The notes below the pieces were generated by a model. The model ran no database searches. It saw only the letters and a program-made list of their open reading frames with translations, and was not told the DNA's origin. Position numbers and translations under genes: made by a program. Source: a virus. Taken from it: 64,000 bases of DNA. Below are positions 126 to 5,840 of this stretch, piece after piece. The stretch lies in IMG/VR virus record IMGVR_UViG_3300030099_006533. The stretch is one strand, 5' to 3'. The first letter of the stretch is position 1, and each line of letters begins with the position of its first letter.

Positions 126-139
126 TGTAAAACTTTTGC
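126..139 (+). repeat. 14-nt direct repeat TGTAAAACTTTTGC, copy 1
   Basis: Identical 14-mer at 126-139 and 362-375; imperfect palindrome. Confidence 0.85.
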
Positions 140-148
140 GAAAACGAT

Positions 149-221
149 GGGTCGTTAGCTCAATTGGTAGAGCATCGGACTTTTAATCCGCAGGTTCAGG
201 GTTCAAGTCCCTGACGACCCA
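149..221 (+). tRNA. trnK: tRNA-Lys(TTT)
   Basis: Acceptor GGGTCGT/ACGACCC, D arm GCTC/GAGC, loop CTTTTAA, T loop TTCAAGT; no encoded CCA. Confidence 0.95.
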
Positions 222-234
222 CAAAACATACGTT

Positions 235-355
235 GAGTTGATGGGCGGGCTGTGCATGCCTGAACGGCAGAGCAGCCTGGGCAATAGTGTAGAGCTTAGG
301 GGTTCAAAGCTATTTGCTAAACCGCCATGCCCTAACATGGCGGCCTCATCATCTC
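235..355 (+). ncRNA. Candidate structured ncRNA of unknown family (closing helix plus three hairpins)
   Basis: 235-245 pairs with 344-355; hairpin 247-278 (GGGCTG/CAGCCT, inner TGCC/GGCA); hairpin 281-317; perfect 8-bp hairpin CCGCCATG/CATGGCGG at 322-343; GC-rich, between two tRNAs. Confidence 0.6.
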
Positions 356-361
356 GTCATT

Positions 362-373
362 TGTAAAACTTTT

Positions 374-375
<2 letters not shown>
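362..375 (+). repeat. 14-nt direct repeat TGTAAAACTTTTGC, copy 2
   Basis: Identical to 126-139; its last two bases are the first two of tRNA-Arg. Confidence 0.85.
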
Positions 376-450
<75 letters not shown>

Positions 451-4816: not shown

Positions 4817-5134
4817 ATGACAATTCATCAAAACATGTTTGACAACGCACAAAAAGAAAAAATTGATGCTGCTTTTGAAAATGAGCAGCCATGGCCTGAA
4901 GGTCCTTTAAAAGACCTTCTTTTGGAATATGTTGGTACAAAGAAAGAAACAGAAGAAGTAACTGTTGAAATGATTGTTGAGCAGCTAGCCGAAGAGTTTC
5001 CTGAGTTTTTGATGGTAGTAGCAGAAGAAAATTGGATCAGAGGATACCAACAGGCAATCCATGATGTTGACCAGGGACAAAAAATGTTAGCTGAGCAAGC
5101 TAAAGAAAACAAAGCGTGTTTGAATGAAGGATGA
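4817..5134 (+). CDS. Hypothetical protein
   Basis: 105-aa ORF with RBS, first gene after the sigma70 promoter. Confidence 0.8.
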   Translation: MTIHQNMFDNAQKEKIDAAFENEQPWPEGPLKDLLLEYVGTKKETEEVTVEMIVEQLAEEFPEFLMVVAEENWIRGYQQAIHDVDQGQKMLAEQAKENKACLNEG

Positions 5135-5840
5135 AAATACTGCTAATGGTTTAGTTGGTTACATTAAGAAAACTCTAGAAGAGTCAGCTAAGACCCGAAG
5201 AGAATATAGCCTATACGGTACATCGTATGTGTATGTACAGGATTTTTTGCCTGATAACGTAAACGTGGTTGATGTGCTACAAACGATAGAAGACATTGTC
5301 CCGGGCCACATGGTAAAAGAAGTGGACACTATTTTTATTGGAGATTACCAACATCTAAAAGATAAAGCCGTCACAGCCATGTATGATTCAGGCGCGATTT
5401 ATATTTCTAATGAACAAAAAAGCAATGATGATATGGTTGACGATTTAGTGCATGAGATTGCTCATTCATTGGAGCAGCCATACGGGTATGCTATTTATTC
5501 TGATGGTGTAGTAGAAAAAGAATTCTTAGGCAAGCGAATGAAAATGTATGAATTGCTTTCTGCTTACAACTTCGTATCACAAAATAGCAAATCTGCATTT
5601 ATGCAGGTAGAATATGATCATTATTTTGATGAGTTGTTGTATAAAAAAATTGGGTACGAGAGACTAGCCCAATTACTCGTAGGTGTCTATACTACACCAT
5701 ATGCAGCGACCTCGCTGCGCGAATATTTTGCCACAGGATTTGAAGATTATTTTCTTCATGATGGGGAATATCTTAAAAAAATTAGTCCAAGATTGTTTAA
5801 TAAGATTGACAAATTAGTAAAAGGAGTGTATGATGGATAA
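5124..5840 (+). CDS. Putative zincin metallopeptidase (HExxH; MtfA/lethal-factor-like C-terminus)
   Basis: LVHEIAH, and YAATSLREYFATGFEDYF supplying a third-ligand Glu. Confidence 0.65.
   Translation: MKDENTANGLVGYIKKTLEESAKTRREYSLYGTSYVYVQDFLPDNVNVVDVLQTIEDIVPGHMVKEVDTIFIGDYQHLKDKAVTAMYDSGAIYISNEQKSNDDMVDDLVHEIAHSLEQPYGYAIYSDGVVEKEFLGKRMKMYELLSAYNFVSQNSKSAFMQVEYDHYFDELLYKKIGYERLAQLLVGVYTTPYAATSLREYFATGFEDYFLHDGEYLKKISPRLFNKIDKLVKGVYDG

Follow-up and report, generated by a model that had tools for sequence, protein, structure and literature searches.

The 121-nt segment at positions 235-355 (plus strand) of the window, a 64,000-nt stretch of viral DNA, belongs to an uncatalogued family of structured RNAs with a narrow known distribution in an uncultured group of marine phages (the L041 type). 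It lies between genes for tRNA-Lys(UUU) (149-222) and tRNA-Arg(UCU) (374-450), both called by ARAGORN. That the element is a selected, strand-specific RNA structure can be held with high confidence. The wider reading favoured here, to which we give a probability of roughly 0.45 as a whole, is that it is the gene of a new family of RNA that is co-transcribed, excised and stable, and acts in trans by binding protein. An earlier note had described a non-coding RNA unlike the known tRNA, 5S, SRP and tmRNA patterns, with paired ends enclosing three hairpins, one of them a perfect 8-bp stem at 322-343 with a CCCTAA loop, and had suggested a z-score against shuffled sequence, a cmscan against Rfam and a covariation test on collected homologues. 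All three have been run and the description is borne out: the fold is far stronger than those of shuffled sequences (z -5.7, with none of 200 matching it), no known family matches, and six pairs are altered on both sides across four variants, compensatory changes in five helices that uphold the four-way junction. The features of the locus are as follows.

126-139, plus strand: first copy of the 14-nt motif TGTAAAACTTTTGC, 10 nt before tRNA-Lys; start of the unit formed by tRNA-Lys and the element
149-222, plus strand: tRNA-Lys(UUU) without an encoded CCA (ARAGORN; 75.1 bits with Rfam), 97-100% identical among variants
223-234, plus strand: A/U-rich spacer of 12 nt, AAAACAUAYGYU-like and conserved; putative 5' processing region
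235-355, plus strand: structured RNA with a four-way junction (fold z-score, homologue scores, pair counts, RNAalifold)
235-245 with 345-355, plus strand: P1, an 11-bp closing stem in which 10 of 11 positions pair, with one U.U mismatch
246-279, plus strand: hairpin P2, loop at 261-265
280-318, plus strand: hairpin P3, with an internal loop and an apical loop at 296-301
296-301, plus strand: L3, the apical loop of P3 (UUAGGG), in which AGGG is invariant
319-321, plus strand: joint J3/4
322-343, plus strand: P4, a perfect 8-bp stem, loop CCCUAA at 330-335
330-335, plus strand: L4, the loop of P4 (CCCUAA), invariant in the four variants; candidate kissing partner of L3
356-375, plus strand: 6-nt spacer followed by the second copy of TGTAAAACTTTTGC (362-375); end of the unit
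374-450, plus strand: tRNA-Arg(UCU), which holds the junction of two lineages

The minimum free energy (MFE) of the element is -58.3 kcal/mol, against -40.1 +/- 3.2 kcal/mol in 200 dinucleotide shuffles, and no shuffle equalled it. The minus strand folds much more weakly (z -2.8) and the window copy contains six G.U pairs, which together speak for the plus strand.

Relatives were found with a covariance model built on the window sequence alone, and phages of the L041 type were gathered through the gene for an ECF-type sigma factor located 1.5 kb downstream. Scanning metagenomes with a 20-mer from P4 led to two independent marine contigs, L041 (MDTD01035871.1) and L042 (Ga0163109_10003268), which hold the identical 121 nt, both in the order tRNA-Leu, tRNA-Lys, element, tRNA-Arg. 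Three diverged variants occur in seven further contigs, namely L047 (121 bits, 94% identity to the window copy), L049-L053 (95 bits, 80%) and L056 (93 bits, 76%), the scores with the single-sequence model ranging from 92 to 121 bits. In total, four variants are known from 9-11 contigs, all of them marine; contigs L026-L062 derive from Tara Oceans and from Saanich Inlet/Line P. Since independent assemblies contain the same element, the RNA is real whichever way the window was joined.

In the alignment of the four variants, 97.7% of the cells belonging to the 44 pairs are paired, and six pairs, distributed over five helices, are altered on both sides:

P1, alignment columns 5/119: U-A to C-G
P1, alignment columns 6/118: G-C to A-U
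P2, alignment columns 16/41: C-G to U-A
P2 tip, alignment columns 24/34: G-C to A-U
P3, alignment columns 49/83: C-G to U-A
P4, alignment columns 91/108: G-C to A-U

When the partners were slid by 1-3 columns as a control, 0-1 two-sided changes and 32-53% pairing were obtained. A shuffle control equalled the observed covariation score in 2 of 500 runs, in a test where related sequences can outscore all shuffles even without structure. RNAalifold recovered the same fold when the structure was not supplied, and each of the three diverged variants folds strongly by itself (z -5.0 to -5.3). In the MFE structures of L049 and L056 two small hairpins replace P2, and this helix is the less certain because some of the substitutions suit both P2 and the two-hairpin fold. 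The covariation statistics are thin, as only four distinct variants from one phage lineage contribute to them. The rate of change adds a separate argument. Neighbouring protein genes are 76-95% identical between the contigs (74-92% for the sigma factor gene), much like the element, whereas the tRNAs are 97-100% identical; because the element diverges at the pace of protein genes and the tRNAs barely change, conservation of the fold amounts to more than slow drift.

Searches for known families, further copies and a host counterpart returned nothing beyond this phage group. Rfam 15 gave no match to the element at gathering scores when the whole window was scanned, and at E<=10 the region 200-400 yielded nothing meaningful, just the cut ends of the flanking tRNAs; ARAGORN found no tRNA or tmRNA in 223-373. 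The element had no blastn match among 50,697 GenBank phage records. In IMG/VR, patterns drawn from the element and tRNA-Lys, both exact and gapped, yielded nothing or chance matches that the model rejected; contig L067 of that collection carries a tRNA-Lys resembling this one, but an ORF for a small membrane protein follows it in place of the RNA. Two patterns had no match in GTDB species genomes. The ECF-type sigma factor of the L041-type phages (L041:8914-9513, with homologues in L047-L061) has its nearest cellular relatives in marine Myxococcota/Bradymonadia metagenome-assembled genomes (MAGs), at 50-57% identity, a hint to the host or to the source of the gene. When one Myxococcota MAG, whose sigma factor is 56% identical to that of the phage, and 30 genomes of the same order were scanned with model R2, one chance-level match appeared (E 0.08) and no host counterpart was found. 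Among the cellular relatives of the phage sigma factor, one (L064:10001-10600) lies in an ordinary chromosomal neighbourhood. A resemblance of the minus strand of the P2 tip to a type I-F CRISPR repeat was dropped, as it is not conserved in L049 and L056 and the RNA is on the plus strand.

Conservation within the element is highest in the loops of P3 and P4. In the window copy, L3 (UUAGGG) is the exact reverse complement of L4 (CCCUAA); five of these pairs are held in two further variants and four in the last, while two 6-nt loops drawn at random would be complementary at five or more bases with a probability of about 0.004. A kissing contact between L3 and L4 is therefore likely from the sequences, although we infer it from complementarity, because the loops show no covariation. 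P2 adjoins both P1 and P3 without any linker, and the helices at the other two joints are only 1-3 nt apart. Such a junction could stack P1 on P4 and P2 on P3, which would set P3 beside P4 for the kissing loops. The earlier note had drawn attention to the tip of P3, where it read GGGGTTCAAA as a T-loop-like apex. This string is not a loop, being neither conserved nor unpaired. The homologues back an apical stem (GAGC/GYUY) that carries a 6-nt loop, (U/G)(U/C)AGGG, at the tip of P3; in three of the four variants the U equivalent to T54 is a C, and GGGGUUCAAAG is replaced by GGGGCUC or GGGGCUU, which is paired in the supported fold. The marks of a canonical T-loop (T54-Psi55-C56 in a 7-nt loop on a 5-bp stem) are absent from the element. 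With no tRNA match at E<=10 either, the suggestion of a tRNA mimic finds no support.

The position of the element is as constant as its fold. At every homologous locus tRNA-Lys(UUU) lies 12 nt upstream, and in the alignments the element begins with G, preceded by a U. The motif TGTAAAACTTTTGC follows the element on its 3' side in all four variants, whatever comes after it. The next feature is tRNA-Arg with tRNA-Gly in the window, L041, L042 and L047 (in the window, the second motif copy overlaps the start of tRNA-Arg by its last two bases), and an ORF in L049-53 and L056, which in L049 and L056 starts about 30 nt past the element. The same motif stands before almost every gene and tRNA of the L041-type phages, in the orientation of the gene and in 211 distinct contexts, and is seen throughout L041, L047, L049, L054, L056 and L060. 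GGAG and a start codon (ATG) often come after it, and no conserved boxes flank it. The motif may serve as a compact promoter specific to these phages, as an operator or as a site of RNA processing; distinct promoters of the sigma-70-like type, with TATAAT, are found in the same regions of these phages. No copy of the motif belongs to the element itself, which places it in one unit with tRNA-Lys within a longer transcript, and the shared unit points to co-transcription with tRNA-Lys and excision at the flanking spacers. The co-transcription suggested in the earlier note thus fits the sequence, in which the element sits within the tRNA-Lys unit.

After some copies of the motif a recurring block is observed (L049:3738-3840, L049:1437-1530, L056:112-200 and L060:5405-5500), composed of a GC-rich stem-loop with a run of T, a sigma-70-like TATAAT promoter, a ribosome-binding site and a small ORF. 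The block, as seen between tRNA-Leu and tRNA-Lys, was considered as a second RNA and rejected, since it looks like a promoter/terminator cassette of the PeSL kind.

The element is not present in all phages of the group. The relatives L054 and L060-62 are without it, and precisely so: tRNA-Lys is followed by tRNA-Arg after 9 nt, with AAAAATTTTGC at the joint. Because close relatives do without it, the element is an optional, dispensable cassette. AAAAC flanks the presence/absence indel on both sides, other relatives have lost tRNA-Arg and tRNA-Gly between two copies of the motif, and in general the gains, losses and boundaries of modules coincide with motif copies. In the PeSL cassettes of T4-type phages, modules likewise swap at a short repeated regulatory sequence (PMC2839356, PMC4122927), as the element and the tRNA-Arg/tRNA-Gly pair do at TGTAAAACTTTTGC. 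However, PeSLs are composites of a promoter and a stem-loop, while the 14-nt motif is without conserved flanks and is placed ahead of almost all genes and tRNAs.

The favoured reading goes beyond what the sequences show in four respects, namely transcription, excision, the kissing contact and a role in trans. The element would be transcribed on the strand and in the unit of tRNA-Lys(UUU), as part of a long transcript of the early type in which tRNAs and small ORFs are mixed, and would be excised at the conserved A/U-rich spacers on both of its sides. It would then persist as a stable RNA of about 121-123 nt, a stability predicted because the 11-bp terminal helix closes a compact four-way junction. 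P1 is probably stacked on P4 and P2 on P3, with pairing between L3 (UAGGG) and L4 (CCCUA) locking P3 beside P4. The folded RNA would act in trans, as a decoy or a scaffold for protein, and the cassette would be gained and lost by recombination at the repeated 14-nt motif. A trans-acting, protein-binding RNA is favoured because the maintenance of four helices and of invariant loops argues for a specific three-dimensional shape. A narrower version, quite improbable as it stands, would make the element a decoy for counter-defence or host takeover, a compact kissing-loop RNA produced together with the phage tRNA-Lys(UUU). It would bind and neutralise a host protein whose action is directed at tRNA-Lys or at the processing of tRNAs, and would be traded among related phages as an optional cassette at the per-gene motif; conceivable targets include anticodon nucleases such as PrrC/RloC and factors for RNA repair or quality control. 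The hints for such a decoy are, in all, the constant linkage to tRNA-Lys, the accessory distribution and a gene for an AAA_33/KTI12 P-loop kinase-like protein in the same contigs.

That phage tRNA clusters can harbour small stable RNAs has been known since T4, and the element adds a cleanly defined new family to these RNAs. The nearest analogy is provided by rnaC (species 1, 139 nt) and rnaD (species 2, 119 nt) of T4, non-coding genes that directly follow tRNA-Arg on the tRNA strand. The element is placed alike, behind a tRNA of a phage cluster, on the same strand and non-coding. The function of the T4 RNAs is still unexplained after decades (PMC9697503). The likeness is not one of descent: with its filters off, model R2 scored at most 8.3 bits (<=8.3) across T4 68000-76000, and the folds differ. 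T4 rnaC has a canonical T-arm (CCGGG-UUCGAAU-CCCGG) and an acceptor-like end, which the element does not, and T4 rnaD folds weakly (z -0.8), whereas the element folds very strongly. The earlier note had also thought of Y RNAs. Those of the YrlA type (RF02553; PMC4201824) resemble the element in size, in having paired ends around several hairpins and in their occurrence in phages. The element, however, has no match to the YrlA model at E<=10 and no conserved loops resembling a T-arm or D-arm, and its probable loop-loop contact joins the third helix with the fourth and is not tRNA-like in arrangement. No Ro60/Rsr (TROVE) gene was found among the called genes with Pfam hits within 6-7 kb in L047, L049-53 and L056. 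Together with the failed model match, this leaves the likeness to Y RNA unsupported. What makes the element useful is its strong fold backed by covariation, its fully complementary loops and the natural presence/absence variants, which are ready controls; if it turns out to be a trans-acting protein-binding RNA, it would help to explain why such RNAs lie beside particular tRNAs.

A different role would be played in cis. The element may be a processing or stability block within a polycistronic transcript, guarding the tRNA-Lys precursor or the downstream RNA against exonucleases, or guiding endonucleases to the A/U-rich spacers, with no role in trans. Such a block would suit the fixed place between tRNA-Lys and whichever motif-marked unit comes next, and the conserved flanking spacers, and the element, having no copy of the motif to itself, does not form a unit apart. 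Yet relatives keep tRNA-Lys 9 nt from tRNA-Arg without any block, and a simple hairpin would protect an RNA just as well, whereas four helices and two invariant complementary loops have been kept. A purely cis-acting block is considered unlikely.

The presence/absence polymorphism, its indel flanked by AAAAC at either end, and module boundaries that fall on motif copies, as in the PeSL cassettes (PMC2839356, PMC4122927), might also be expected of a tRNA relic or a selfish cassette with little function. In this case P3 (GGGCAAU...GGGGUUCAAAGCUAUUUGCU) would be a decayed acceptor/T-arm minihelix shuffled at the motif, and the window variant does have the string GGGGTTCAAAGC and an acceptor-like 7-bp base in P3. 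Against this, the compensatory changes in five helices and the invariant loops signify ongoing selection on the fold, and the T-loop-like string is not conserved. The element is also present in a single copy per contig (one in the 64-kb window), not in many, and the hallmarks of MITE-like repeats (many copies, terminal inverted repeats, target-site duplication) were not found, the AAAAC being part of the recurring motif. A relic or selfish origin with little function is accordingly improbable.

Theta ribozymes, which are minimal HDV-like ribozymes, form structured RNAs just 3' of phage tRNAs and possibly handle tRNA transcripts (PMC10879173), a position that the element shares. This precedent, the location directly behind a phage tRNA without an encoded CCA, and the compact junction, whose loops probably touch as they do in hairpin and hammerhead ribozymes, could suggest a new self-cleaving ribozyme that matures the 3' side of tRNA-Lys, analogous to theta. 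The element differs from theta, however, in being about twice the size, in lying behind a conserved 12-nt spacer and in forming a plain nested four-way junction instead of the HDV double pseudoknot, and it matches no Rfam ribozyme at E<=10. Because the spacer intervenes, cleavage at the edge of the element would give no mature 3' end of tRNA-Lys. A ribozyme of this type is very improbable.

Since several classes of riboswitch typically form four-way junctions of about 100-120 nt, and since an ORF begins about 30 nt past the element in L049 and L056, a riboswitch or another cis-regulator of downstream genes may be envisaged. No Rfam riboswitch matched, including the SAM-I, yybP-ykoY, NiCo and cobalamin classes, there is no terminator-like site in 1-600 and no overlap with a ribosome-binding site that would sequester it, and in three contig types two tRNAs stand between the element and the next ORF. 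Regulation of downstream genes is thus more doubtful still.

The earlier note had stated that no ORF explains the segment. Taken literally this is inexact, as ORFs of 42 aa (238-366, plus strand) and 51 aa (183-338, minus strand) overlap the element, but in substance it stands, since no reading frame survives the 1-nt indels that the homologues have at alignment columns 43 and 111. An exact-sequence look-up of the products of the small ORFs found none on record, and the substitutions in the homologues keep base pairs, not codons. Despite the two overlapping ORFs, a small protein-coding gene is hardly credible in the face of these data, and nor is a chance fold when 0 of 200 shuffles fold as well.

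The window itself appears to be composite. Its bases 1-450 are 99.8% identical to L041, the match stopping at 450, the end of tRNA-Arg, while bases 365-2200 are 99.8% identical to Tara Oceans contigs L026-28, where the match begins at 365. Within tRNA-Arg (374-450), the 5' part is of the L041 type (T at 377, T at 390) and the discriminator A447 of the L026 type. Upstream of tRNA-Arg, L026-28 have tRNA-Lys, tRNA-Ile, an ORF of 74 aa and a phosphomannomutase-like gene. The element was absent from all 37 loci fetched through the downstream cytidylyltransferase gene, and it was this lack that exposed the junction. The motif TGTAAAACTTTTGC is distributed accordingly, with two copies in the 64-kb window (126 and 362) versus 19-38 per 10-14 kb in L041-type contigs, and none in L026-type contigs. 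Because the matches break inside tRNA-Arg and the motif is distributed in this way, bases 1-450 are foreign, as judged from sequence comparison, to the other 63.5 kb and come from a different phage lineage, which makes the window a recombinant or an assembly chimera with its joint in a tRNA gene common to the two lineages. The start of the window is probably the start of the record, so that a chimera at the contig end is at least as likely as a natural recombinant. Conserved tRNA genes are evidently places where phage genomes, or their assemblies, become spliced together.

Several minor observations concern the lineage to which the bulk of the window belongs. In L026 the phosphomannomutase-like gene (2105-2920) runs about 23 nt into tRNA-Arg (2898-2974), and likewise in L001 and L029; owing to this overlap, the cut that matures the tRNA at its 5' end would sever the mRNA ahead of the stop codon. 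A tmRNA is encoded a few kb upstream of the tRNA-Arg/cytidylyltransferase region in relatives of the window bulk (L026/L029 lineage):

L004:867-1202: tmRNA
L005:722-1054: tmRNA
L013:659-971: tmRNA
L029:663-994: tmRNA

ARAGORN calls a tRNA-Ile(UAU) of 95 nt in L002 (1560-1654) and L037 (2717-2811), against 76 nt in relatives, which suggests an insertion or an intron in the tRNA gene. Finally, an ORF of 238 aa in the window (5124-5840, plus strand) has a sub-threshold match to the Pfam family ATLF (26.4 bits, cut-off 27.4) and also one to Peptidase_M90, and from these similarities its product is probably a small zinc metallopeptidase (zincin).
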